From contig JAUCCH010000055.1 in the NCBI GenBank assembly GCA_034676385.1, positions 1-40,298 on the forward strand: 40,298 nucleotides of DNA, in the 5' to 3' direction. The notes beneath the pieces were generated by a model. That model worked only from the letters and a program-made list of their open reading frames with translations, was not told the DNA's origin and made no database searches. Shown here in pieces: positions 1-40,298 of the stretch. The first letter of the stretch is position 1. Each line of letters opens with the position of its first letter. Source of the stretch: Leucobacter sp. (GTDB lineage Bacteria; Actinomycetota; Actinomycetes; Actinomycetales; Microbacteriaceae). Made by a program: the position numbers and the translations under genes.

Positions 1-951
1 CGGCGAACGATGCGCCGCCCGGTGACATGTGCCGCTCGGCTTGCGTGACGCGAACGCTGTGTAGGGCACCTCAGCAACCTCAGCCCTGGAGATCAGCCGA
101 CCCGTCACTTCATCACGGGTCGCACCGGGGTACATGATCGGCTGCCACGCGTGATCACTGATGGTCTCGATCGCGCGCTTGATCAATGGATTCATGCGAA
201 CTGTCACCGACAGCGTCAGCGCCCACAGCCAATGCTGCTCGGGCGACGGTGTGAGAGTAGTAGGCGGCGTCTGCTCGTACCAACACCCGCCGATCGGGTG
301 CCCCGCTCATACGACCCAACTGGGCGAGGGCATCACCAACGACTCGTTTCGCGCCACGTGCGGAACTCGTTGCCCCCTTCCCGAAGTCGTTGTGTGAGCA
401 CCACAGGGTGCGGAGTCCTTCATCGAAACCCAACAGCAAGGACAGCGTTGAGCCCCCACACCCCAGAGTAGCCAAACAAGGCCCCCTGCTTCAGGTACCC
501 CTCAACCTCGATAATGGTGTCATCAACATCAACAAAGGTGAACTCGTCTCTCGCCGCAGGCAACAACCCCGGCGTCTCACGGGTGAGGCTGGTGAGGAAC
601 CTCGACGCGACCACGTCAAGCTAGCACGTGCCCAAACTCAAACGCCCGCAAGAACGACCCGAGCGTTGACGGGGCGTACACGCGATCGAAGAGCCGGGTC
701 ATGCCGCCATGACGAAGCAACCGCATATCATCGATCGAGTCGGCGCCAGCGACCATGCCAGCGATCAATGAGGCGACCTTTGCTCCCGCGTTCGCTCCCT
801 TGTCAGAAGGAACGGTGAGGTGCGTGTCAGCGAGATGCGTCAGGCCTGCCCGCTCGGCCAGACGCATCACCGGCACCAAGCCCGAAGCCGACACAAGGTT
901 GATGTCATCGAACTCCGCAGACAGCGCCGCTGACGTGTGATTGAATTGCAT
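1..951 (-). pseudogene. IS1380-family transposase, fragmented into three frames (616..951, 420..614, 155..475); the remainder runs off the window start
   Basis: N-terminal 'FDDINLVSASGLVPVMRLAERAGL' and DDE-region 'VDVDDTIIEVEGYLKQGALFGYSGVWGLNAVLA' match the IS1380 transposase pattern (FDxxxLTSxAGL ... DVDxTxxExxGxxKQGAxxGYxG). The consecutive pieces lie in different frames on the same strand, indicating frameshifts. Confidence 0.5.
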
Positions 952-1374
952 CTTGGAGGTGCTCCCTGAGATGGGTTGGAATGGTCGTGTCGTAACAACT
1001 ATTCTCCCAGATCAGAGGGGCCTTTCCGTTATTTCAGAGCACTCTTTTGAGCCTAGTCATCGGTGAATCCGGGCTTAAGCGCACTAGACTGCCTGGCGCT
1101 TACATGTTCAACCGCGCCCTCGACCGGTCCTTTAAGTTGGTCCGCATCCTCGAGCCGATTCCGCGCTCGGGTGAGTTCTTCAACTCGACTTCGCTGTACC
1201 GCGGTCATTCCAAGAACTGTCTGGAGCGTTCTTGCCGACGGTGCCAATCCATACTCATTCATGAAATGAGACAATCAGAAATTCGAATTCTTACGCAACC
1301 ACAAGTCGCTGAGTCAGCGATTCCAATTGAGGTTCACTGGCGATTCGCTTGCGGTAAGGCTAGACAGCCACGCC

Positions 1375-1791
1375 CTAAGCACTGACAAGAAGCTGGTCAC
1401 GTCGCAGATAAGCATAGCTTTGTGGTGCCGTTGAATTCGGTTCGACCTCTTTGAGCGGAAGCGGCTGCTCAAAAGACATAGCTTCCTCGACAACGATGGC
1501 AAATGCAATCTCTTTGCCCTCGTAGTAACTGAAAAATGCTGCCTGTCCAATTACCCCTGATTCGCCATAGCGAGCCCAGATAGCTTCGGGACTATCTTCA
1601 ACAATCTCATCAATATTGAATGTGCCTAGCACGCGGCTCACGGGCGCAGTCGCGTAAACGATCACAGTTTTTATGTCTGCAGCGAGCCGGCGCTTACGAA
1701 ATTCGACTGTCTTGGCGCCTTGAAAGATCGCTTCAGCGTACTCAGGGTGAATCGACATCAGTGCGACGCGTTCAGTTGCTGCTCGACCCAT
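1375..1791 (-). CDS. ASCH (PUA-like) domain protein
   Basis: 138 aa. 'LMSIHPEYAEAIFQGAKTVEFRKRR ... IAFAIVVEEAMSFEQPLPLKE' fits the ASCH beta-barrel pattern. It overlaps the upstream EVE gene by 34 nt on the same strand, consistent with an operon. Confidence 0.5.
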   Translation of the reverse strand: MGRAATERVALMSIHPEYAEAIFQGAKTVEFRKRRLAADIKTVIVYATAPVSRVLGTFNIDEIVEDSPEAIWARYGESGVIGQAAFFSYYEGKEIAFAIVVEEAMSFEQPLPLKEVEPNSTAPQSYAYLRRDQLLVSA

Positions 1792-2204
1792 GCAATACCC
1801 TCCGTGTTCTTGACTTCGACCACTGACTGAGGAGCAGCCTTGACCACCTTATTCGATATCAGCTCCGAAAGTCCCCAAGTTGGTATCATGAACCGATCAT
1901 GTCTAGACAAAATCGTCAAGACAGATCGCTTCCACCTTCCATGGAGCGCTTCGATCTCCACCGGAGAATATACGGTTCGCTTGAACGAGAGCGCCGCAGT
2001 TGCAGATGGGTCGATACCCTTATGGGATCCTTCAGCGATACCGACCGCGCTTACCGCACCATCACCCTTACGAGTTCCTTGAGAACGGTAGAAGAGAAGG
2101 AGCGCTCCAGGAGGAATGCTCGATTGAGGTGCTCTACACAGGTAAGCCTTTCGTATCGCATTACCGTGCGCACGAGTGTTTGTGTTTAATCCGGGAAGAA
2201 GCAT
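1758..2204 (-). CDS. EVE (PUA-like) domain protein
   Basis: 'NTRAHGNAIRKAYL...PPGALLLFYRSQGTRKGDGAVSAVGIAEG ... ILSRHDRFMIPTWGLSELI' parallels the EVE/THYN1 core (WDGVRNYQARNFLRxM..GDxxFFYHS....IVGIAEIV ... LFTRQRLSIQPLTxEEF). The first beta-strand appears to be missing. Confidence 0.5.
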   Translation of the reverse strand: MLLPGLNTNTRAHGNAIRKAYLCRAPQSSIPPGALLLFYRSQGTRKGDGAVSAVGIAEGSHKGIDPSATAALSFKRTVYSPVEIEALHGRWKRSVLTILSRHDRFMIPTWGLSELISNKVVKAAPQSVVEVKNTEGIAWVEQQLNASH

Positions 2205-2255
2205 GCTCCCTGAAGCACCGGGGACTTCCGCGTCTGGAAAAGTCCGTCATACCAC

Positions 2256-3287
2256 TCAGGGACGATTGGAACTACGAATATTGGTTGCCCGGCTCGAATC
2301 GCAGGAGGCCCATATTTGATATGAAACTATCCAGCCCAGTAGAGCTTTGACCTTCAGCGGGATCAAGGGTCTTGACATAGAAGCTTTCATCGCAGGTCTT
2401 CTTCCAGCGAGTCTGAATCCAAACTCAGGCAGGAACTCGGCCAACCGGTCCTTCTTATCTTTAACCTCAACAAAGATGTCACTCGGTCGTCCTGGCTCAC
2501 GTTCTGCCCAACGAAGAACGGCTTTTAAGAGCAATTCACCAAGACGACGCCCGTTTGCATGGTCGGCAACTTTGAATGTCGAGAGCTTGATCGCGCGTCG
2601 AAGGTTGTCGCTTGGATGTTCATCGGAAATCTTAAGAAGTGCAATGCCGTCGTAGGTTCCATCAGCTTGCCGAATAACCCAGCAGCGACGATTCACAGCG
2701 TCCCTTTTCAGCCGCCCTAGCCATGCGTCAAAATCAGGTGCATAATCTTCTCGCAAGCCGTCAAAGATGGATTGCGATGGATCAAGATTGTACGCAGGAA
2801 AAACCTCTACTTGCGGCGGCGGTAGCGGTGCCTCAGGATGCCAGAGGTTAAGCCGGTGTGCTGCTTCATCCGGACGGAGCACCCTTGGTTCGTGGCCAAG
2901 TTGAATTGCGCGAGAACGTAACTTCCTATCGTTCGTGACAAGAAAGTCCACAGCACCAATATGTAGCGCTGAGAGTATTCGTGCATCCCGTTGGTCGTTA
3001 TCGTTCAGATTTAATGGGTAGCAATCCCAAACCTCATCGGGCACTTGGGTTTCTTCTAGGGCCGCATACTTCCTAAAGGCAGCAAGGTTTTGCCGTCGAT
3101 GGGCCGGATCCCTTGTTTGCGAAAGGTCATCGCTTGATGCAGGGTGAACCCAAACTGTGTGCCCGTGCTTCGTTGCATGACTCAGAAAACGACTGACATG
3201 AGGCTGCACTCGTTCAAGTCCACCAGCGAAAGGCTCAGCTGCAATGATCACATTGGTATCGATCAAGAATGACATCGCTCGCTGCAT
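2256..3287 (-). CDS. PIN-domain nuclease fused to a C-terminal GNAT acetyltransferase domain
   Basis: N-terminus 'MSFLIDTNVIIAAEP ... NDQRDARILSALHIGAVDFLVTNDRKL' carries the PIN acidic-residue layout (D in IDTN, DARIL, VTND). The C-terminus 'CWVIRQADGTYDGIALLKI ... FKVADHANGRRLGELLLKAVLRWAE ... RLAEFLPEFGFRLAG' matches GNAT motifs A/B. A possible alternative start is the Met 4 codons downstream (MSFLID). Confidence 0.6.
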   Translation of the reverse strand: MQRAMSFLIDTNVIIAAEPFAGGLERVQPHVSRFLSHATKHGHTVWVHPASSDDLSQTRDPAHRRQNLAAFRKYAALEETQVPDEVWDCYPLNLNDNDQRDARILSALHIGAVDFLVTNDRKLRSRAIQLGHEPRVLRPDEAAHRLNLWHPEAPLPPPQVEVFPAYNLDPSQSIFDGLREDYAPDFDAWLGRLKRDAVNRRCWVIRQADGTYDGIALLKISDEHPSDNLRRAIKLSTFKVADHANGRRLGELLLKAVLRWAEREPGRPSDIFVEVKDKKDRLAEFLPEFGFRLAGRRPAMKASMSRPLIPLKVKALLGWIVSYQIWASCDSSRATNIRSSNRP

Positions 3288-3463
3288 ATAGCCTCCCTCG
3301 CTGGAGCTCTTCCCCCTAGGCTACCGGGGCCTAGAACTTTATTGAATCGCTCGATCTTCAGAATGCCAGTAGCCCGCCTGAAAGCTCTATGCTCTCGCCG
3401 CGAGCAATGCGCATATCCCTCAAGTCCTGCCGGCTATTTCATAGCCCGCAGCTTTCGGCACAC

Positions 3464-3784
3464 TTAGACAGCTAGTGCGGGTGAAACGCCTAAGTTTTCA
3501 ACAGTGATAAACACGGTGTTGGCGTTCTCTTGATTCGTGTAGTTCCTCTTGGGAACTCGCTCAGACTCAAACTGGGCAAGTACCGTCGGGCGCGAGAGCA
3601 CTCTATTTGACTCGGCGAGTAATTCATTCGAATTGGCAAGCCCTCTATTTGACTCCGCGAGATCCTCCAGCTGTTTCCACGCAAACATGAGTAGCACTAC
3701 AGCGACAATGACAGCTTCAAACGAGCAAACCGCCTGCCATTCGTCGGCAGTCGGGAAACCATCAAATCGCCACCATTCAGACAT
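3464..3784 (-). CDS. small hypothetical protein (one predicted TM helix plus a repeated LAESNR coiled segment); weak call
   Basis: ATG at 3784..3782 lies 6 nt outside the IS3 copy 1 end. The product has 'AVIVAVVLLMFAW' and a duplicated ~20-bp DNA repeat (CTCTATTTGACTCNGCGAG x2). The ORF-track version (3464..3895) starts inside the IS and is probably artefactual there. Confidence 0.2.
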   Translation of the reverse strand: MSEWWRFDGFPTADEWQAVCSFEAVIVAVVLLMFAWKQLEDLAESNRGLANSNELLAESNRVLSRPTVLAQFESERVPKRNYTNQENANTVFITVENLGVSPALAV

Positions 3785-3891
3785 AGATTGTATGGGCTGT
3801 GTCAAGTTTCGTAGACGTGAGAACGCTTGATTATTGATTACGGGCTGAAGATCAGGCCACAGCCCTTTCCGCTGCCTGGAGGTTTGAACGG

Positions 3892-4761
3892 TCAAAGAAC
3901 GCCTGCATCACCGACATCGGGGTGCGATACCCCGAGGGTGGAGTGGCGACGCTTCCGGTTGTAGAACACCTCAATATATTCAGCAACCGCAAGCCTTGCC
4001 CTCGCCCGGGTGGCATAGTGGTGATGATGCCAATGCTCGTTCTTCAGCGAAGCAAACCAGCTTTCGGCGACGGCATTGTCCCAGCACACCCCAGTTCTTC
4101 CCACTGAGAGTCTCAGATCCATCAGCCTGGCCGCGTCAGCGAATTCAGCAGACGTGTATTGGGCACCTTTGTCGCTGTGAAATATTGCGTTCCCGGCGGT
4201 GTAGCCGGCGCGATGCGCCATCGTGAGCGCATCAACCATCAGCGACGTTCTCATATGGGCTGCCGTCTGCCATCCGACCACCATTCTTGTGGTCAGATCA
4301 ATCACCGTCGCAAGATACAGCCAACCTTCGCCAGTTTTGAGGTACGTGATGTCGCCCACGAGGCAGGTTGTTGGAACCGGGGGTGTGAACCGACGCCCGA
4401 TGAAGTCACGCCGGATACCGGCATCGGGCGCGGGGATCGTGGTTCGTTTCGTGGCGCGCGGCTGAATCCCTTGAATCCCGAGCTCTCGCATGAGCTGCCA
4501 CACCAGCCATGGAGACACCGTCATCCCTTGAGCAGCAAGTTCGGCATGAATGCGCCGCACCCCAAGGATTTTGTGGTGATCGATCCAGATCTTCCCGATC
4601 AGATCGGAGAGCTCTTGCCGCCGTATCTTTCGGGCATCAGGTGCTGCATGTCGCCGCTGCTTCCATGCGTAAAAACCCGCACGATGCACTTTCAGCAGTC
4701 GACACATGAACGTGACAGCATGTTGGCCTTCTTCGTGTTCGATCAGCTCGTACTTGCGCAC
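3892..4761 (-). CDS. IS3-family transposase OrfB (rve/DDE integrase core); the C-terminus is altered by a 1-nt insertion relative to copy 2
   Basis: It is identical to copy 2 OrfB apart from one M/V substitution until '...RKRRHSTLG'. Then copy 1 has CCCC (3930-3933) where copy 2 has GGG on the other strand, giving 'VSHPDVGDAGVL*' instead of the consensus-like 'YRTPMSVMQAFF...'. Confidence 0.8.
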   Translation of the reverse strand: MRKYELIEHEEGQHAVTFMCRLLKVHRAGFYAWKQRRHAAPDARKIRRQELSDLIGKIWIDHHKILGVRRIHAELAAQGMTVSPWLVWQLMRELGIQGIQPRATKRTTIPAPDAGIRRDFIGRRFTPPVPTTCLVGDITYLKTGEGWLYLATVIDLTTRMVVGWQTAAHMRTSLMVDALTMAHRAGYTAGNAIFHSDKGAQYTSAEFADAARLMDLRLSVGRTGVCWDNAVAESWFASLKNEHWHHHHYATRARARLAVAEYIEVFYNRKRRHSTLGVSHPDVGDAGVL

Positions 4762-5066
4762 TACCGCTGTTCCTTCGCGAAGAAGGCCGCCGCTTTTTTT
4801 AGGAACGTGTTTTCCTCACGCAACCGGTTGATCTCACGTTGCATCTCGTGCGGGTCTTGCGAGTAAGGGTCAGGGGTTCGGCGGGCTGACCCTGAACCAG
4901 TGCCATGCGTGCCGGTTGCTTTCCCAACCCATTTCCCGAGCGTTGATTCGTTGATTTCTAGGTCGCGGGCGACCTGGGCTCGTGTTTTGCCGAGCTCGGT
5001 TACCATGCGCACAGCGTCGGCTTTGAACTCGTCACTGAACTCTCGACGGGGTCGGAGTGTAGACAT
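4761..5066 (-). CDS. IS3-family transposase OrfA (HTH)
   Basis: The 101-aa product is identical to copy 2 OrfA. An A7G (T7 on this strand, 4794-4800) slippery run lies near the 3' end, where OrfB overlaps in the -1 frame. Confidence 0.85.
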   Translation of the reverse strand: MSTLRPRREFSDEFKADAVRMVTELGKTRAQVARDLEINESTLGKWVGKATGTHGTGSGSARRTPDPYSQDPHEMQREINRLREENTFLKKAAAFFAKEQR

Positions 5067-5243
5067 CTGATGGGATTCCTTCCAATGGAGTTCTCCTGTC
5101 TACAACAAGCATGACACCTCAATTGATGACTGGAGGTAGCAATCATGCCCTGCCTGATTGGCCACCACCCATGCAGTTTCCTACTAGATGGGCTCACGAA
5201 CATGGTAACGGGGGAACTATTCACGAACAGCCCGGCGCGGAAA

Positions 5244-9211: not shown

Positions 9212-9655
9212 CCGCCCTAAATGATGGTGCCGAGCCGAGTCTGCCACTCTGTAAGTAGAATGAAAGATGCTGATCCCGAGAATCCGTTCTCAGAAGTTAT
9301 GAACGTCGGCGGCTATGGAGCTCCCAAGCGCCGCGAGAACGAGCAGTTTTAACATCGGGGCTTCAACAACTAGCGCCAAGCACCTCGGGTGAACTGTTGT
9401 AACGAGCATCCACACAAGGAAATACCAGATCAAGAACCACTAGCTGCGTGATAGTAGTGCAGCGAAGACAACCTGACCGGTGCCCCAATTACCAATGTCA
9501 CGGCAGAGCACGAGCCCCCGCCTGGTTACCAAGAGGGGTCAGATGGAGTCGAGCGTACGGACTAAGGGCGGGCGAAGGTTTACCCCGTGATTGCGGAGGC
9601 AGCAGCCAACTTTTCCCTGCGGGACACCGAGTTACTCACTCACTCGCGCGAGATT

Positions 9656-9848
9656 CTAACCAGACAGGTACATCACCTTTGCTCGGTCTGCCTGGTCGTC
9701 CGCAAAACCGGGCTTCCTCAGCTTGACCCCTGCCGATCTCAGGTGACGCGCCACCGTCTGCCGGTGCACGCTGAATGCCCTGGCTACCTCATTTTGCAGA
9801 CGCGCCTGACTCGTAGAGGGCAACCATGTCGGCGGTCATTTGTGGGGT
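9656..9848 (-). pseudogene. serine recombinase (resolvase/invertase-like) C-terminal HTH remnant with a frameshift
   Basis: 'TPQMTADMVALYESGAS' is followed after a 1-nt frame change by 'VARAFSVHRQTVARHLRSAG', which matches the resolvase C-terminal pattern (LTPEQ..L...G.S...IA..FGVSR.TVYRHL). No catalytic N-terminal domain is present. Confidence 0.35.
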
Positions 9849-13910: not shown

Positions 13911-14024
13911 TCTCAGTTTTCTAGGCCAAATCGCTACACCGCCTTACTGCCTACTGGTAGTAAGTATCACTGAGTAGTTGTCACATCTCAACGGTGCAGC
14001 AACTGCACGGCGCGGAGGCAGGAC

Positions 14025-14309
14025 ATGCTGAAGCAGAGTAAGCAGAGTAAGCAGATGACTGAGATGCTCAACGGTACTCTCGAGGGCATCGTGCTTGCGA
14101 TCCTCGAAAAAGAACCGTGTATGGCTACGAAATCATGGCGAGACTTCGCTGAGTATCAACCGGTGACTTCGATCGTGAATACTGTTCGGGCGCTTTTTGA
14201 AGGCCAGCCGGTCGCCACAGGGATCTGGATTGCCCTGGTGTGGTGCGTCGGAATACCACTAGCCGCCTATTTCGGTTCAGCCGCCGTGTATCGTCGCAAA
14301 ATGAAATGA
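14025..14309 (+). pseudogene. chimeric remnant: the PadR-family regulator 5' end (frameshifted) joined to the last ~50 codons of an ABC-2 type permease
   Basis: 'MTEMLNGTLEGIVLAILEKEP' is a PadR N-terminus. The expected 'YGYEIMARLR' is present only in the +1 frame and then hits a stop. The rest of the ORF, 'NTVRALFEGQPVATGIWIALVWCVGIPLAAYFGSAAVYRRK', is a typical ABC-2 permease C-terminus. Confidence 0.5.
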
Positions 14310-14955: not shown

Positions 14956-15846
14956 AGCGACCCTCCTTGGGGGCGTGGCAGTTCGTTTGCGAGTTTGATG
15001 CCCTGATCCTCGAAGCTTTTCTTGATCAGTGCCCGCAGTTCTCGTTGCACGGAGTACTGTGCCTCGGGGCGGGTGCGCACGGTGAGGCGCAGGGTTGCGC
15101 GATCGCCGAAGACGCTTTCCAGGCCGAGGATCTCGGGCTCGCCGGTGACTCGTCGAGCAAACTGCGCCGACCGCAAGAGCTCTCGTGCGCTCTCAAGAGC
15201 GACGCGCTCGACGAGCTCTAGATCTTCGCTCGCCGACACGGTGATGTCGATGATGGCCCTGCCCCATCCTTGGGAAGCATTGCCAAGCGTCAGCACCTCT
15301 CCATTTCGAATGAACCAAAGTGTGCCGTCGCTTGCGCGAACGCTGGTGATGCGGATTCCGACGTTCTCGACCGTACCGGTGATCGTGCCGACGGTGACCA
15401 GGTCGCCGACACCCATCTGATCCTCGAACACCATGAAGAGGCCGTTCAGAATAATCTTTGACAACATTCTGGGCGCCGAACGCGAGCCCGGCCGCAATGA
15501 AACCTGCAGAGGTGATCACTGCGGCAATGTTCACCTGAAACTGCACCAGAATGAGGAAGAACGCGACGACGACGGTAGCCCAGTTGATGATATTTCGGCC
15601 GAAAGTGCCAAGTGTGCGAGTGCGTTGCACCGCACGTGCATTGAGATACGGGCCCGCGGCGAGTTCCTGGGTCGAATCGACATCTTGCGCTCGCTTGACG
15701 CCACTCACCAGACTGCGCACCGTGCGAGCCAGCATCAGGCGAAGTAGCCAGTTGGCTAGCAGGCAGGCAACAATGACGATTAAGACCCGCCAGAGCACTT
15801 CATACTGGACAAAGAACGCAGTAATGGCACCCCAAATCTCTGCCAT
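14952..15846 (-). pseudogene. mscS: MscS-family mechanosensitive channel, split by a 1-nt deletion near 15465-15475
   Basis: ORF 15193..15846 gives the TM region to 'GLAFGAQNVVKDY'. ORF 14952..15497 resumes with 'SKIILNGLFMVFEDQMGVGDLVTVGTITGTVENVGIRITSVRASDGTLWFIRNGEV'. Together they form the MscS signature once a 1-nt frame change is allowed. Confidence 0.75.
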
Positions 15847-25659: not shown

Positions 25660-27294
25660 ATGAAGCCCCTCGACCCGAGACTCCTGCGCTATGCCAGCGG
25701 TGCCCGCACCGTCCTCGGTGTCGGGGGGCTACTCGGAGTAGTTCGCACGCTTGCGGTCATCACTTGGTGCTGGTGCATCGCTCAATCGCTCGCCCTCCTA
25801 GTGCTACCGGTGCTTGGTGGCATGGGCGGTGCCGCTGGCCGAGTAGCAGAAGGCGCGTATTCCGCGAGCACGCTTCCGTGGCTTGTCACCGTGGCATTGG
25901 TGGCGATCCTCGTACGCTCGGCCGCAAGCTGGGGAATGGATGCACTTGCGGCGCGAGGCGCGGTGCGCGTGAAATCGCAACTGCGTGAAGCGGCACTCAA
26001 CGCAATTGATTCTCGTTCACCAGAGGCCCTGAATTCGCGGTCTGATGCGAGCGGGGCAACCGCACTCGGTCGCGGTCTTGACGCTCTTGATGGATATTTC
26101 TCCGGCTACCTGCCTCAGTTGATCCTTACGATCTGCGCGACGCCATTACTGGTGCTTGCAGTGCTCCTCGCTGATCCATTGAGCGGGCTGGTGGTGGTGA
26201 TCGTCTTTCCGGTGATCCCGGTGTTTATGATCCTCATAGGCCTAGCGACTCAGGGCGTGCAGAAGAAGCAGTGGGAGCAGCTGCAGCACCTTTCTGGATC
26301 CTTCCTTGATGTAGTTGAAGGCCTCACGACGCTGAAGATCTTTCGCCGAGAAGCTCGGCAAGTCCAGCGGATTACTCGTGAAACAGGGGAATATCGCAGT
26401 CGAACCATGCAGGTGCTTCGCGTCACATTCCTTTCCGGGTTCGTGCTTGATCTCGCGGGCACGTTCTCGATCGCACTCGTAGCAGTGACGGTCGGTACAA
26501 GGCTAGTTTCAGGTGAATTTCCCCTTGCGCTTGGCCTTTTCGTGCTGCTCCTGCTGCCCGAAGCGTTCATACCGATTCGTGCGGTTGGTACGGCCTTCCA
26601 CGCGTCAACCGAAGGGTTGGCAGCGGCAGAGCAGGTATTTGAAATTATCGAGGATCAGGGCGCAGACGATTCTCGTCCTCTCAATCTCGTGACAAGCAAC
26701 TCAATTTCCTTTGACCGAGTGAGCATTGAGCGAGGCGCGCACACGGTTGGGCCGGTCTCGCTTCAGGTTCAGCCCGGTGAAATTGTGGCTCTCGTGGGCC
26801 CTTCCGGAACGGGAAAGAGCACCCTGGTGTCTGCGTTGCTCGGTTTTGCGTTGCCATCAAGCGGAGTGCTGGCTCGCCCCGAAACGCTCGCCTGGGTTGG
26901 GCAGCGGCCGGGTCTCCTACATGGGACTATCGCCGAAAATGTGGCGCTGGGTGATGAGCTGGCTGATCCTCGAATGGTGCAACGAGCGCTCGAATCCGTG
27001 GGCCTCGCTGAAATCTCTCAAGACCGCGAACTCGGAGCTTAAGGGCTCGGTCTTTCAGGAGGCCAAGCGCAGCGCGTCGCGATTGCACGAGCGCTGTATC
27101 GTGCTTGGCGACTTGATGCCGCGGCGCTGGTACTTGATGAGCCGAGCTCCGCGCTGGACGCCGAAAGTGAGGCGCGAATTGCAGGTGTGCTGCGTGCGGA
27201 GGCTGCGGCTGGGCGGGCTGTGTTGCTCATCAGCCACCGAACCGCGTTGATAGAAAGTGCGGATCGCGTGGTGCGCATGGGGGAGCTTTCGTGA
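25660..27294 (+). pseudogene. cydD: ABC transporter CydD (thiol reductant exporter needed for bd oxidase assembly) with an in-frame TAA at 27040-27042
   Basis: A TM domain is followed by Walker A 'VALVGPSGTGKST'. The ORF stops at '...RELGA*' but continues in the same frame with 'GLGLSGGQAQRVAIARAL ... LVLDEPSSALD ... LLISHR' (signature, Walker B, H-loop) to a TGA overlapping the cydC GTG start (GTGA). Confidence 0.75.
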
Positions 27295-35317: not shown

Positions 35318-37970
35318 GTGAACGAGCAGCAAGCAAACGCCACGACAGAGGTCGACGCGGAGGCTTATGACTTCCAGGCCATTCAAGACCGGTGGCTACC
35401 GGTCTGGGACGAGCTGAAGCCTTTCGAGGTGGGCAACGATCTTACGGGTGAGAAGCCAAAGAAGTACGTGCTTGATATGTTCCCGTACCCCTCCGGCGAC
35501 CTGCATATGGGTCACGCCGAGGCGTTCTGCTTTGGTGACGTGCTCGCCCGCTACTGGCGTGGGCGCGGCTATGACGTGCTGCACCCGATCGGTTGGGACA
35601 GTTTCGGTCTGCCCGCAGAGAACGCCGCAATCAAGCGAGGCATCGATCCTCGCGAGTGGACGTACGCAAATATCGCGCAGCAAAAGACGAGCTTCCGTGT
35701 GTACGCACCCAGCTTTGACTGGAGTAGGCAGCTGCACACGAGCGACCCCGAGTACTACAAGTGGAACCAGTGGCTGTTCCTCAAAATGTACGAAAAGGGC
35801 CTTGCGTACCGTAAGGCAAGCTGGGTCAACTGGGATCCGGTAGACCAGACGGTGCTTGCAAACGAGCAGGTGCTCGCCGATGGCACCTCGGAGCGCTCGG
35901 GCGCGATGGTGGTTAAGAAGAAGCTGACCCAGTGGTACTTCAGGATCACCGACTACGCGGATCGTCTGCTCGATGACCTGGATGCGCTCGAGGGCCAGTG
36001 GCCCACCAAGGTGCTGAGCATGCAGCGCAACTGGATCGGCAGGTCCGAGGGCGCTGAGGTCGAGTTCGAAATTGAAGGACCCGAGGACCGGGTTCCGGTC
36101 TTTACGACCCGCCCCGATACTCTATTCGGCGCAACATTTATGGTGGTGGCTCCAGACAGCGATCTCGCTTCGGACTCGCCGCAAGTGCGTCCGAAGAAGT
36201 TCAGATGCAGTTTGCGGAATACCTCACTGCGACGCAGAAGCAGAGCGAGATCGATCGCCAGACGGCAGATCGCGACAAGACCGGCGTCTTCCTCGATCAC
36301 TTCGCGATTAACCCCGTTAACGGCGAACGTATTCCCGTGTGGGCATCCGATTACGTGCTCGCCAAGTATGGTCACGGCGCCATCATGGCCGTCCCCGCTC
36401 ACGATCAGCGTGACCTTGATTTTGCACTGAAGTTTGAGCTGCCTGTGCGCGTTGTTGTTGAGGTGCGTGATGAGGACGGCGAAGTACTGCCTAACCCGCA
36501 GACCATGCAGGCATAGCAACGGCCGGCGACGGCCGGATCGTGAACTCCGGTGATCTTGATGGCTTGGGCAAGGTTGAAGCAATCGCCAAGGCGATCGAAC
36601 TGCTCGAAGCGCGCGGCACGGGGCGGGCGACGAAGACCTACCGCCTGCGTGACTGGTTGATCTCGCGCCAGCGTTACTGGGGTACCCCGATTCCGATTCT
36701 TCACGGTGCTGAAGACGGGAATGCGGGCGAGATGCGCCCAGTTGAGCAGAGCAAGCTACCTGTTCGTCTCCCCGCAACTGAGGGACTCGACCTGAAGCCC
36801 AAGGGATCCTCGCCCCTGGGTGCCGCAACCGAGTGGTCGAACGTGACGGACGCAGACGGCCACGCTTGGACCCGAGACCCAGACACGATGGATACTTTCG
36901 TCGATAGTTCCTGGTACTTCCTGCGTTTCCTTTCGGCGACTGACGACACCCAGGCCTTCGACCCTGCGCTCGTCAACGCCTGGGGTCCGATCGACCAGTA
37001 TGCGGGTGGCGTCGAGCACGCAATTCTGCATCTGCTCTACTCACGCTTCATTACGAAGGTGCTGCACGATCTCGGCTATCTCGATTTTGAAGAACCGTTT
37101 ACGGCACTGCTGAACCAGGGCATGGTGCTGCAAGACGGCGCGAAGATGTCGAAGTCGAAGGGCAACCTCGTCGAGTTCGCTTCGGAGCTGCAGGCGCACG
37201 GTGCCGACGCGCTGCGCGTAACTCTCGCGTTTGCTGGCCCTCCCGAGGACGACATTGACTGGGCCGATGTTTCGGTGCAGGGTTCGGCGAAGTTCCTCGC
37301 ACGTGCTTGGCGTGTAGCTGGGGACGTCTCGAGCGACGTGGGTGTCGACTACTTTCGCTGGTGGTGACGCGGGGCTTCGGCGCCACACGCACAAGTTACT
37401 CGCCGATGCGCCCGGCTTGGTCGAACACTACAAGTTCAACGTGCTTGTCGCTCGCCTCATGGATCAGGTCAACGTGACCCGTAAGGCTATCGACTCTGGC
37501 GTGGGCTCGGCTGATCCCGCTGTGCGCGAGTCCGCAGAAGCGATCGCGATGATCCTCTCACTCTTCGCTCCCTACGCTGCTGAAGACATGTGGGCGAAGC
37601 TCGGACATGAGCCAACGGTTGCGCTTCAGGTGTGGCCTTCTGCAGACGAATCGTTGCTCGTGGAGAACGAGGTCACAATGGTCGTGCAGGTTGACGGCAA
37701 GGTGCGCGAGCGCCTCACGCTTCCGCCTCGGTCAGCGAGGCTGAGGCTGAGGCAGCTGCGATGGCATCTGAGTCAGTGAAGCGCGCGATCGGTGACCGCC
37801 AGATTGTGAACCTGATTGTGCGAGTTCCAGAAGATCGTGAGCATCGCGACGAAGCCATAACTTCGATCTGCGATCGTTATGAGCGGCCCGCATCCTCGGA
37901 TTTGAGGGTGCGGGTCGTTCGTTCTGTACGGGAAACTTATCTCCCGCGCTTGGCGACAAAAAGTACGTAA
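35318..37970 (+). pseudogene. leuS: leucyl-tRNA synthetase split into five ORFs by four single-nucleotide deletions (as assembled)
   Basis: The HMGH class-I motif ([15 protein letters not shown]) and KMSKS are present. LeuS-like sequence continues across ORFs 35273..36430, 36205..36516, 36540..37367, 37342..37779 and 37761..37970, with frame changes near 36175, 36508, 37350 and 37725. Each is consistent with one missing base. The 3' tail past ~37850 overlaps holA and is probably a read-through artefact. Confidence 0.85.
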
Positions 37971-38960
37971 CGCTCGAGCGCGTAGACAGGGTCTCTGCTG
38001 CCGCCCTTCAGCGCAAGCTCGGTCTCCGCAGCGAGGTCGATCGCTTTGGCGAGATCTCCCTCGGTCCATCCGCGGGTTTTTCTTCTGCGCACGCTCGACC
38101 ATCCACGGTGCCATGCCGAACGTTGAAGCAAGCTCACCGGAGCTGCCTCGAGCACCGTAGACCCTGGCCATTCCCCGGACTTTCATGTTGAGGGCTGCCA
38201 GCATTGGGATAGGGTAGGTGCCGGTGCTCAAAGCCTGGCGCAATAGTACGAGCGCATCTGCTGCGCCGCCAGCCGTAGCCGCGTCAGCAACCTTGAACGC
38301 ACCTGCCTCGACCCGACCCTCGGTTGAGCGTTCAATGTCCGATTCGGTCAGGCGCTTGCCCACATCAGAACAAGGACCTGTTCAATGGCACCTGCCAGCT
38401 CACCCAGCCCGCCCTGATACGCAGCGACAAGCGCGCGAAGTGCGTTTTGGCGCAATCTGCGCCTCAAGACACCGAAACTCGGACTGTGCAAAGCCGAGCC
38501 TGTCGCTGTCCTTCTTTACCTCGGCGCAGACAATCTCGATGGCACCGATTGAGCCTCCCGCGTCGCCGCGCACGGCATCGAGCAAGGCCTTGCCTCGCTG
38601 ACCGCTCGCATGCCGAAGCACCAGAGTGGTGTCATCTGCGGGCTGCGTGAGGTAGCGTTTCGCATCCTCGAGAAAGGCATCACTCGCCTTTTCGACGCCC
38701 TCAACTCGTATGAGTCTTGGTTCGGCGAAGAGTGACGGGCTCGCGACCGTAAAGAGCTCGCCCTGTCCGTAGCTCGCTGCATCGATGTCGTGAATTTCGA
38801 CTGCCGCGTCGTTTGACCGGAGCATTTCGCGAATCGTTCTTGTCGCGCGATCTGCAAGAAATTGCTCGGGCCCACTGATCAGGACTACGGGCGCAGGACG
38901 CGCCTCGTTATACCCGATCTTGATGATCTTTGCCTTGCTGGTTTTCGTTGCCGCTGCCAC
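37773..38960 (-). pseudogene. holA: DNA polymerase III delta subunit, split into two ORFs by a frameshift near 38365-38400
   Basis: The N-terminal 'VVLISGPEQFLADRATRTIREML' and C-terminal 'GAFKVADAATAGGAADALVLLRQALSTGTYPIPMLAALNMKVRGMARV' match HolA. The GTG start at 38960 has an in-frame TGA just upstream. Confidence 0.7.
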
Positions 38961-39030
38961 GTTTCAAGCCTAGTCTGAGGTGTCATGCTTGTTGTAGACA
39001 GGAGAACTCCATTGGAAGGAATCCCATCAG

Positions 39031-39336
39031 ATGTCTACACTCCGACCCCGTCGAGAGTTCAGTGACGAGTTCAAAGCCGACGCTGTGCGCATGGTAACCG
39101 AGCTCGGCAAAACACGAGCCCAGGTCGCCCGCGACCTAGAAATCAACGAATCAACGCTCGGGAAATGGGTTGGGAAAGCAACCGGCACGCATGGCACTGG
39201 TTCAGGGTCAGCCCGCCGAACCCCTGACCCTTACTCGCAAGACCCGCACGAGATGCAACGTGAGATCAACCGGTTGCGTGAGGAAAACACGTTCCTAAAA
39301 AAAGCGGCGGCCTTCTTCGCGAAGGAACAGCGGTAG
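39031..39336 (+). CDS. IS3-family transposase OrfA (HTH)
   Basis: Identical to copy 1 OrfA. Confidence 0.85.
   Translation: MSTLRPRREFSDEFKADAVRMVTELGKTRAQVARDLEINESTLGKWVGKATGTHGTGSGSARRTPDPYSQDPHEMQREINRLREENTFLKKAAAFFAKEQR
39297..39304 (+). other. A7G slippery run for programmed -1 ribosomal frameshifting (OrfA to OrfAB)
   Basis: 'CTAAAAAAAGCG' lies 30 nt before the orfA stop. The -1 frame is open from here into orfB (KKSGGLLREGTAVV-RKYELIEH...), as in IS3/IS911-type elements. Confidence 0.6.
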
Positions 39337-40244
39337 TGCGCAAGTACGAGCTGATCGAACACGAAGAAGGCCAACATGCTGTCACGTTCATGTGTCGACT
39401 GCTGAAAGTGCATCGTGCGGGTTTTTACGCATGGAAGCAGCGGCGACATGCAGCACCTGATGCCCGAAAGATACGGCGGCAAGAGCTCTCCGATCTGATC
39501 GGGAAGATCTGGATCGATCACCACAAAATCCTTGGGGTGCGGCGCATTCATGCCGAACTTGCTGCTCAAGGGATGACGGTGTCTCCATGGCTGGTGTGGC
39601 AGCTCATGCGAGAGCTCGGGATTCAAGGGATTCAGCCGCGCGCCACGAAACGAACCACGATCCCCGCGCCCGATGCCGGTATCCGGCGTGACTTCATCGG
39701 GCGTCGGTTCACACCCCCGGTTCCAACAACCTGCCTCGTGGGCGACATCACGTACCTCAAAACTGGCGAAGGTTGGCTGTATCTTGCGACGGTGATTGAT
39801 CTGACCACAAGAATGGTGGTCGGATGGCAGACGGCAGCCCATATGAGAACGTCGCTGGTGGTTGATGCGCTCACGATGGCGCATCGCGCCGGCTACACCG
39901 CCGGGAACGCAATATTTCACAGCGACAAAGGTGCCCAATACACGTCTGCTGAATTCGCTGACGCGGCCAGGCTGATGGATCTGAGACTCTCAGTGGGAAG
40001 AACTGGGGTGTGCTGGGACAATGCCGTCGCCGAAAGCTGGTTTGCTTCGCTGAAGAACGAGCATTGGCATCATCACCACTATGCCACCCGGGCGAGGGCA
40101 AGGCTTGCGGTTGCTGAATATATTGAGGTGTTCTACAACCGGAAGCGTCGCCACTCCACCCTCGGGTATCGCACCCCGATGTCGGTGATGCAGGCGTTCT
40201 TTGACCGTTCAAACCTCCAGGCAGCGGAAAGGGCTGTGGCCTGA
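39336..40244 (+). CDS. IS3-family transposase OrfB (rve integrase core, DDE), intact copy
   Basis: The 302-aa product ends with the family-typical '...RKRRHSTLGYRTPMSVMQAFF'. The GTG start overlaps the orfA stop. Confidence 0.85.
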   Translation: MRKYELIEHEEGQHAVTFMCRLLKVHRAGFYAWKQRRHAAPDARKIRRQELSDLIGKIWIDHHKILGVRRIHAELAAQGMTVSPWLVWQLMRELGIQGIQPRATKRTTIPAPDAGIRRDFIGRRFTPPVPTTCLVGDITYLKTGEGWLYLATVIDLTTRMVVGWQTAAHMRTSLVVDALTMAHRAGYTAGNAIFHSDKGAQYTSAEFADAARLMDLRLSVGRTGVCWDNAVAESWFASLKNEHWHHHHYATRARARLAVAEYIEVFYNRKRRHSTLGYRTPMSVMQAFFDRSNLQAAERAVA

Positions 40245-40298
40245 TCTTCAGCCCGTAATCAATAATCAAGCGTTCTCACGTCTACGAAACTTGACACA

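Follow-up and report, generated by a model that had tools for sequence, protein, structure and literature searches.

Eight frame breaks in leuS and holA of a Leucobacter contig as probable consensus errors of a draft assembly

In a contig of 40,298 nucleotides (nt) from Leucobacter sp. (Microbacteriaceae; NCBI GenBank assembly GCA_034676385.1, contig JAUCCH010000055.1), which was analysed over its whole length and is called the window here, the genes for leucine-tRNA ligase (leuS) and for the delta subunit of DNA polymerase III (holA) are interrupted by eight frame-breaking lesions. Both genes are essential and normally single-copy. We assign a probability of about 0.78 to the reading that these frame breaks are errors of the consensus, left uncorrected where a draft assembly was poorly supported. 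A first-pass annotation of the sequence had named assembly indels or genuine decay as the possible causes. The first of these is favoured by lesions that are private to the window, by their confinement to a positional block and by the clean repair of both genes.

According to this explanation, about 2.4 kb (roughly 36.0-38.5 kb) would have been poorly supported when the contig was built, leading to small indels and a few substitutions. Such a stretch might arise where read depth dips in a long-read assembly or where a hybrid assembly is bridged by weakly polished sequence, and the organism itself would carry intact leuS and holA.

Frame structure of leuS and holA

The leuS gene is located at 35318-37860 on the forward strand and conceptually encodes 846 amino acids (aa). 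Five frame-breaking lesions were detected in it by tblastn and DNA alignments. In the tblastn search with the full-length LeuS of Leucobacter sp. UT-8R-CII-1-4 (L001), similarity to the window DNA runs through frames 2, 1, 3 and 1 in this order, in agreement with the earlier statement that LeuS-like coding sequence extends across several frames. The N-terminal segment shares 92% identity with L001, 91% with a metagenome-assembled genome of Leucobacter soli (L002) and 88% with L. chromiiresistens (L003). The lesion sites were placed by DNA alignment to L001-L004, L082 and L100, with L082 (85.5%) and L100 (86.9%) as the closest DNA references for the leuS-holA locus. By these alignments the lesions are not four single-nucleotide deletions, as first proposed, and rather comprise five events, mixed from insertions, deletions and compound changes, with net shifts of -1, +2, +1, -1 and +1. 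The resulting frame segments are 35318-36174, 36175-36504, 36507-37355, 37357-37724, 37725-37828 and 37830-37860. A frame plot based on the GC content of third codon positions was noisy at 58% GC.

Lesion 1 (36174-36175) is a 1-nt deletion within a glutamate codon, TCGGA-CTCGCC, where the relatives read GAG/GAA CTC. The lost base is thus the third base of the Glu codon (GA-CTC), and not a C missing from GGACCTC as the first-pass annotation had suggested for the site near 36175. Lesion 2 (36503-36512) is compound with a net shift of +2, reading ACCATGCAGGCATAGCA against ACCA--G[CT]GG[CT]GT[CT]GCA in the relatives, and leads to a TAG stop at 36514-36516. Lesion 3 (37349-37356) adds a net of four bases, GTCGAC[TACT]TTCGCTGG, which can alternatively be described as an in-frame +3 insertion of ACT plus a +1 insertion of C; a TGA stop follows at 37365-37367. 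Lesion 4 (37724-37725) is again a 1-nt deletion, CTTCC-GCCTCGG, compared with CC[NC]GCC in the relatives. Lesion 5, a 1-nt insertion at 37829 (GTTCC[A]GAAGATC), alters the last 11 codons of leuS only.

As written, the sequence does not provide LeuS in a single open reading frame (ORF), the first ORF stopping at 36430 after 370 aa. The identity of the gene is nevertheless clear from its parts and from the repaired product. The LeuS fragments of the window match PF00133, PF09334 and PF08264, and the LeuS proteins of the relatives carry the Pfam domains tRNA-synt_1, 1g, 1_2 and Anticodon_1. After repair, the 846-aa translation aligns end to end with the LeuS of L082 (845 aa) at 95% identity, and both signature motifs, HMGH and KMSKS, are kept.

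The holA gene is oriented convergently to leuS. It occupies 37937-38960 on the minus strand and conceptually encodes 339-340 aa. An interruption of holA had already been recognised, as a single split; we find three frame-breaking lesions (+1, net +2 and +1), located at 38445, at about 38369 and at 38082, so that HolA is not contained in a single ORF either. Lesion 8 (38445) is a 1-nt insertion in a homopolymer, reading CCAAA[A]CGC on the coding strand (A3>A4). Lesion 7 (38363-38375) is compound with a net shift of +2, CAG[GTC]CTTGTT-CTGATG on the coding strand, composed of +3 (GTC) and -1 within the T run. Lesion 6 (38078-38084) is a 1-nt insertion in an A-rich run, AAGAAAAACCC on the coding strand against AAG GAA ACC C, and is neighboured by a G>A substitution. 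The N-terminal fragment falls into a 90% cluster with the intact 339-aa proteins P0122-P0125, the same length as the repaired translation (339/340 aa), and the HolA relatives carry DNA_pol3_delta_C (PF21694).

Mending only the five sites in leuS and the three in holA restores both proteins, LeuS at 846 aa and HolA at 339/340 aa, free of in-frame stops. A comparison of these loci with relatives, as had been recommended for closely related genomes, revealed uninterrupted orthologues in all of more than 35 relatives.

Position and privacy of the changes

The most informative comparison is given by another NCBI contig (36,293 nt), termed the sister sequence here, which encodes a LeuS fragment (P0001, 464 aa) and a HolA protein (P0123, 339 aa) and shares 97-98% identity with the window across the protein stretches compared. 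Five lesions (1, 2, 6, 7 and 8) are open to this comparison; all of them are absent from the sister and hence private to one assembly. P0001 is uninterrupted across lesions 1 and 2, with QTSGVATAG at the latter, and P0123 is intact at 339 aa without lesions 6 (QKETRGW), 7 (EQLVSDVG) and 8. LeuS residues 2-224 are identical between window and P0001, with residue 1 differing solely because the GTG start is read as V in one case and as M in the other, and HolA residues 1-166 are identical between window and P0123.

Substitutions private to the window are interspersed with the indels in both proteins. In comparison to 36 other LeuS sequences, six such substitutions were detected (S234, P255, D320, K350, A397 and I399), all within aa 234-399. 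At each of these sites the sister has the residue of the relatives, for example D350, present in 35 of 36 sequences, and R255, present in 31 of 36. In HolA, the private changes are C167, the QLVSD stretch, G213, Y231 and K292 (aa 167-292), at sites that are invariant among P0122-P0125. Taken over both genes, the private changes sit in two sub-blocks, one at about 36.02-36.52 kb and one at about 37.35-38.46 kb, the latter comprising indels and the holA substitutions. The density of private events inside the sub-blocks is about 2%, near that of poorly supported consensus. Measured against the sister, neither the first 700 nt of leuS nor the first 500 nt of holA hold any private change; with changes spread uniformly over leuS and holA, clean 5' parts in both would have a joint probability of about 7e-6. 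The damage tracks position and not gene borders: it covers LeuS aa 234-399, the 3' end of leuS and HolA aa 167-292.

On the scale of the contig the clustering is extreme. Ordinary chromosomal genes contain 11 lesions, and eight of these are crowded into 2.27 kb, which does not agree with the earlier estimate of roughly one lesion per 3 kb. In a scan-statistic simulation, p was 1.75e-5 for 11 lesions over 28.6 kb and 3e-4 for 18 lesions over the whole contig. A model of uniform random error is therefore rejected, which leaves two options, a local drop in consensus quality or a decay specific to leuS and holA. About 20 other genes that were checked are uninterrupted, including the 860-aa pepN, cydA, cydB, cydC and pabB; the reported integrity of the long genes pepN, cydA and pabB was thus confirmed.

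The sister sequence has a private lesion in leuS of its own. This is a +1 insertion (TACT[C]GGGG) at the position equivalent to about 36670 of the window, and P0001 ends there. Adding one C to the TACTGGGG of the window at about 36670 reproduces the out-of-frame tail of P0001 exactly, so the sister DNA is compatible with identity to the window over 39 nt, synonymous positions included. In addition, the sister LeuS has a private substitution, E225K, at a residue that is conserved among the relatives (35 of 36). The sister assembly probably contains consensus errors, too.

The C-terminal part of the sister LeuS was not returned by two further protein searches. In these as in the first search, three in all, the listed matches were all shorter than about 1.75 times the query length, and an intact C-terminal ORF of about 390 aa would have been missed. 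This non-return of C-terminal pieces weakly suggests that the sister is free of lesions 3 and 4 and is not counted as evidence here. The clusters of pabB, aminotransferase IV, kynU, cydA, cydB, cydC, band-7, pepN, nei and rpiB contain no member from the 36,293-nt contig, so that no overlap of the sister with the left flank of the locus is visible. LeuS peptides specific for the window or the sister were not found in two metagenome scans with degenerate patterns.

Origin of the lesions

Known cases of assembly error resemble the situation described here. In Flye and Unicycler assemblies (PMC8442456) and with Kastor (PMC12007338), the likeness consists in small indels prevailing over substitutions, in local clusters within non-repeat sequence, and in conserved genes that turn into apparent frameshifted pseudogenes, private to one assembly and restored to the form of the orthologue by repair. 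There are also differences to these cases, since only about half of the lesions in the window touch a homopolymer and the contig outside the block is comparatively clean. For both hybrid and long-read assemblies, clustering of errors outside repeats and local spikes of error have been documented (PMC8442456), and genes can be pseudogenised by assembly errors also through insertions outside homopolymers (PMC12007338). The architecture of the contig, which crosses a complete IS3-family insertion sequence (IS) element of 1.3 kb, ends inside a second IS3 and starts inside an IS1380 element, fits a low- or modest-depth long-read or hybrid assembly. The terminal IS3 is free of errors, as would be predicted if it is supported by reads from every copy in the genome, and the adjoining unique sequence is noisy.

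Several points weigh against consensus error. We infer both its cause, low read support, and the sequencing technology. Random error alone leaves unexplained why a clean majority of genes stands against two badly hit neighbours, unless support is assumed to have dropped locally. Several lesions lie outside homopolymers, unlike the most typical nanopore or circular consensus sequencing error, and lesions 3-5 are outside the sister comparison. The leuS gene of the sister is likewise broken, at a different site, which could mean that leuS is dispensable in the lineage instead of errors in both assemblies. The second IS3 copy lies 15 nt upstream of the start codon of holA, a genuine rearrangement by which holA could have been silenced: comEA-comEC, which runs straight into holA in L081, L096 and L100, is replaced by IS3 in the window, and this operon context is lost. 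Finally, the contig is genuinely rich in IS elements, and remnants of a helix-turn-helix gene and of padR look like real decay in its accessory part with many mobile elements, which would mean that this genome does undergo some decay.

The last three of these points count in favour of genuine recent pseudogenisation, in which leuS and holA copies reside elsewhere, through IS3-mediated duplication or on another replicon, and the ancestral copies decay. The order cydABDC, class-IV aminotransferase, pabB, leuS and holA is that of L001, except for a 2.7-kb insert, so that the genes in the window are the ancestral, syntenic copies. Lesions gathered in particular genes while most genes stay intact, and a nonsense codon in cydD on the same contig, also speak for decay. 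In leuS and holA, amino acid changes are in excess on the window branch (37:19 versus 44:66 in control genes, Fisher p = 0.0018; for LeuS, the count against L082 is 10:2), although local error accounts equally well for every such rate excess. We regard pseudogenisation as unlikely. None of the five testable lesions is common with the sister, whose holA is intact, and the decay reading consequently needs paralogues that arose just before the split from the sister. These would be required for two unrelated essential genes simultaneously; and as leuS is broken in both window and sister, a third copy or an error is required regardless. Nor would neutral decay spare the 5' parts of both genes, and neither shared lesions nor evenly spread decay were observed.

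The mutation spectrum points in the same direction. All lesion events comprise 1-4 nt. With the IS and mscS lesions counted in, nine net +1 events were found versus two pure deletions, plus two events of net +2. Within leuS and holA, half of the eight lesions are compound and combine two to four changes in a stretch of about 10 nt. About 10 indel events and about 12-16 substitutions give a ratio near 1:1.5, and there are no large deletions and, after repair, no in-frame stops. In 151 natural bacterial pseudogenes, 396 deletions amount to 7,421 nt in total with a long size tail; about one third of the deletions are of 1 nt, and the insertion-to-deletion ratio is 0.76 (PMC6054270). Such a long size tail, with substitutions far above indels, was not seen in the window, although this is only suggestive in so small a sample. 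Among residual assembly errors, insertions were reported to make up about 44%, deletions 47% and substitutions 9%, i.e. about 91% indels (PMC8442456). With these few events, the spectrum is a supportive argument and not a decisive one.

Should the lesions be real, leuS and holA of this IS-rich Leucobacter strain with its low GC content would be young multi-lesion pseudogenes beside IS3, with second copies elsewhere, for instance by an IS-mediated duplication of leuS-holA; this more specific picture we hold to be, if anything, slightly less probable again. Actinobacteria with expanded IS elements and many pseudogenes are exemplified by Leifsonia xyli subsp. xyli, Renibacterium salmoninarum and Mycobacterium leprae. 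The window shares with them a high density of IS elements, the disruption of several genes within 40 kb, an IS next to a disrupted gene and multi-lesion pseudogenes adjoining intact genes. In contrast to the window, lesions in these species are common to close strains, larger deletions occur and decay runs across whole genes. To our knowledge, essential single-copy leuS and holA also remain intact in them.

A mosaic with spurious indels might also have arisen when reads of related strains or species were merged into a chimeric consensus by the assembler or polisher. The contig would in this case derive from a metagenome or a mixed culture, and the lesions would again be artefacts, with mixing as the cause in place of low depth. 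Related Leucobacter with 85-87% DNA identity at the locus, together with the same IS3, are present in public metagenomes, leuS is conserved highly enough for reads of relatives to cross-map, and the lesions are compound and messy. However, the residues P255, K350, C167, Y231 and others, private to the window, match no allele of any related sequence compared, so that the block is not a mosaic of known relatives, the identity of the block to L082 is not unusual, and cydA is equally conserved yet clean. We therefore give little credence to a mixed population as the source. An import of the block by recombination was considered as well and rejected, the divergence from L082 not being unusual there.

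Recoding, whether through transcriptional slippage or through programmed ribosomal frameshifting, or a split leucyl-tRNA synthetase as in Aquifex, carries practically no weight: a +1 slip would be possible in principle at lesion 3 (TTT C), and in the IS3 elements of the contig orfA and orfB are joined by a programmed -1 frameshift, which are weak hints, but eight separate events would be needed in two genes, in both directions and including net +2 shifts, at sites of which none is conserved in the sister and in genes that are uninterrupted in more than 35 Microbacteriaceae relatives as well as in L082 and L100. Like prfB (+1), dnaX (-1) and IS3 orfAB (-1), the window presents an apparent frame break within a needed gene; those systems, unlike the eight unconserved sites found here, possess one conserved slippery site in all orthologues. 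The pieces have no starts of their own, as a split enzyme would need, and the breaks lie inside the catalytic and CP1 regions. The earlier remark that no recoding signal is visible stands, and five independent events in one gene, absent from relatives, are not credible as recoding. A sequence motif common to the lesions, resembling a methylation site or otherwise, was not shared among the eight sites.

Neighbouring elements and consequences for annotation

The GC content of the window is about 58%, compared with 59% in L001 and about 61% in the metagenomic relatives L081-L084. The 2.7-kb insert relative to L001 (30300-32930) lies between the band-7 gene and the pair of class-IV aminotransferase and pabB and contains a kynureninase gene and an ORF for a 397-aa membrane protein without Pfam match. 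Scanning the window for Rfam families and tRNAs gave no matches.

Two copies of the IS3-family element were detected. Copy 2 (38976-40298, plus strand; orfA 39031-39336, orfB 39336-40244) equals the consensus of nine external copies and is cut by the contig end 5 nt short of the end of the element. Copy 1 (3793-5121, minus strand) is complete at about 1.3 kb and served as an internal control in comparison with copy 2 and the nine external copies. The 1-nt insertion noticed before in its orfB was verified as a private G3>G4 change at about 3933, and one substitution, a private G>A at 4239, accompanies it. There is no obvious 3-bp target-site duplication around copy 1 (3790-3792 versus 5122-5124; GTA on one side, ATT on the other), and the unequal flanks may result from recombination between IS copies and not from simple insertion. 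OrfB (39336-40244; 3895-4815) is found residue-identical on other contigs from NCBI, Logan and ENA, including several sewage and other metagenomes, and its 90% cluster also includes IS3 transposases of Brevibacterium aurantiacum. Judged from these sequences, the distribution points to a recent horizontal spread of IS3 between actinobacterial genera.

The IS1380-family transposase (1-950, minus strand) is partial, cut by the contig start. A disruption had been noted before with two breaks; we count three frame shifts, each of net +1, together with one stop in frame. The stitched protein matches NF033539 with E = 3.5e-51 and 174.1 bits (curated cutoff 180) over profile positions 2-287 of 419; it may be either a degenerate copy or low-support sequence of the contig end. 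A plasmid search gave zero matches for IS1380. Between IS1380 and IS3 copy 1, the region 1000-4000 has a GC content of about 52% versus 58-60% and contains an ASCH-domain ORF and a fused PIN-GNAT ORF; this is probably a horizontally acquired island.

Further disrupted genes lie outside the leuS-holA block. The single break of mscS (minus strand) was retrieved at about 15488 (15486-15490), probably as a 1-nt insertion, GATTAT[T]CTGAACGGC, where KDYLNGLF is expected. It divides the channel domains between two ORFs, with MS_channel_1st in the upstream one and MS_channel_2nd and 3rd in the downstream one. The in-frame TAA in cydD was likewise found, at 27040-27042 on the plus strand, where L001 has Gln (LGA*GLGLSGGQ versus LGAQGAGLSGGQ). 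This nonsense codon is of the CAA>TAA type and stands directly before the ABC signature LSGGQ; the remaining cydD as well as cydA, cydB and cydC are intact and conserved. It may be a lesion of very recent origin or else an erroneous substitution. A disrupted padR had also been listed, and what we recover is a weakly supported remnant at about 13974-14200 (plus strand), a PadR-like N-terminus of about 30 aa that changes frame before similarity is lost (E = 0.0025 for 32 aa). A helix-turn-helix remnant at 9300-9700 (minus strand), with a frameshift and two in-frame stops, is weakly supported, too.

In the plasmid search for leuS, only a distant Microbacterium leuS was found (75.7%), on a 465-kb 'plasmid' that looks chromosome-like. 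On this replicon of Microbacterium sp. NIBRBAC000506063 (L099; NZ_CP072877.1, 249570-262522), leuS is followed by comEA- and comEC-like genes, a core chromosomal neighbourhood; this 'plasmid' may represent a chromid, or part of the chromosome under a wrong label.

If the frame breaks in leuS and holA are artefacts, this contig, and probably the whole assembly as well as the sister, would be annotated with false pseudogenes in essential genes, which would inflate pseudogene counts and give a false hint of genome decay in this Leucobacter lineage. Residual errors can cluster strongly, and a clean pepN or cydA is thus no guarantee for an adjoining gene. If instead the lesions are real, two essential housekeeping genes would have been replaced by paralogues in an IS-rich actinobacterium, a rare and unusual event.

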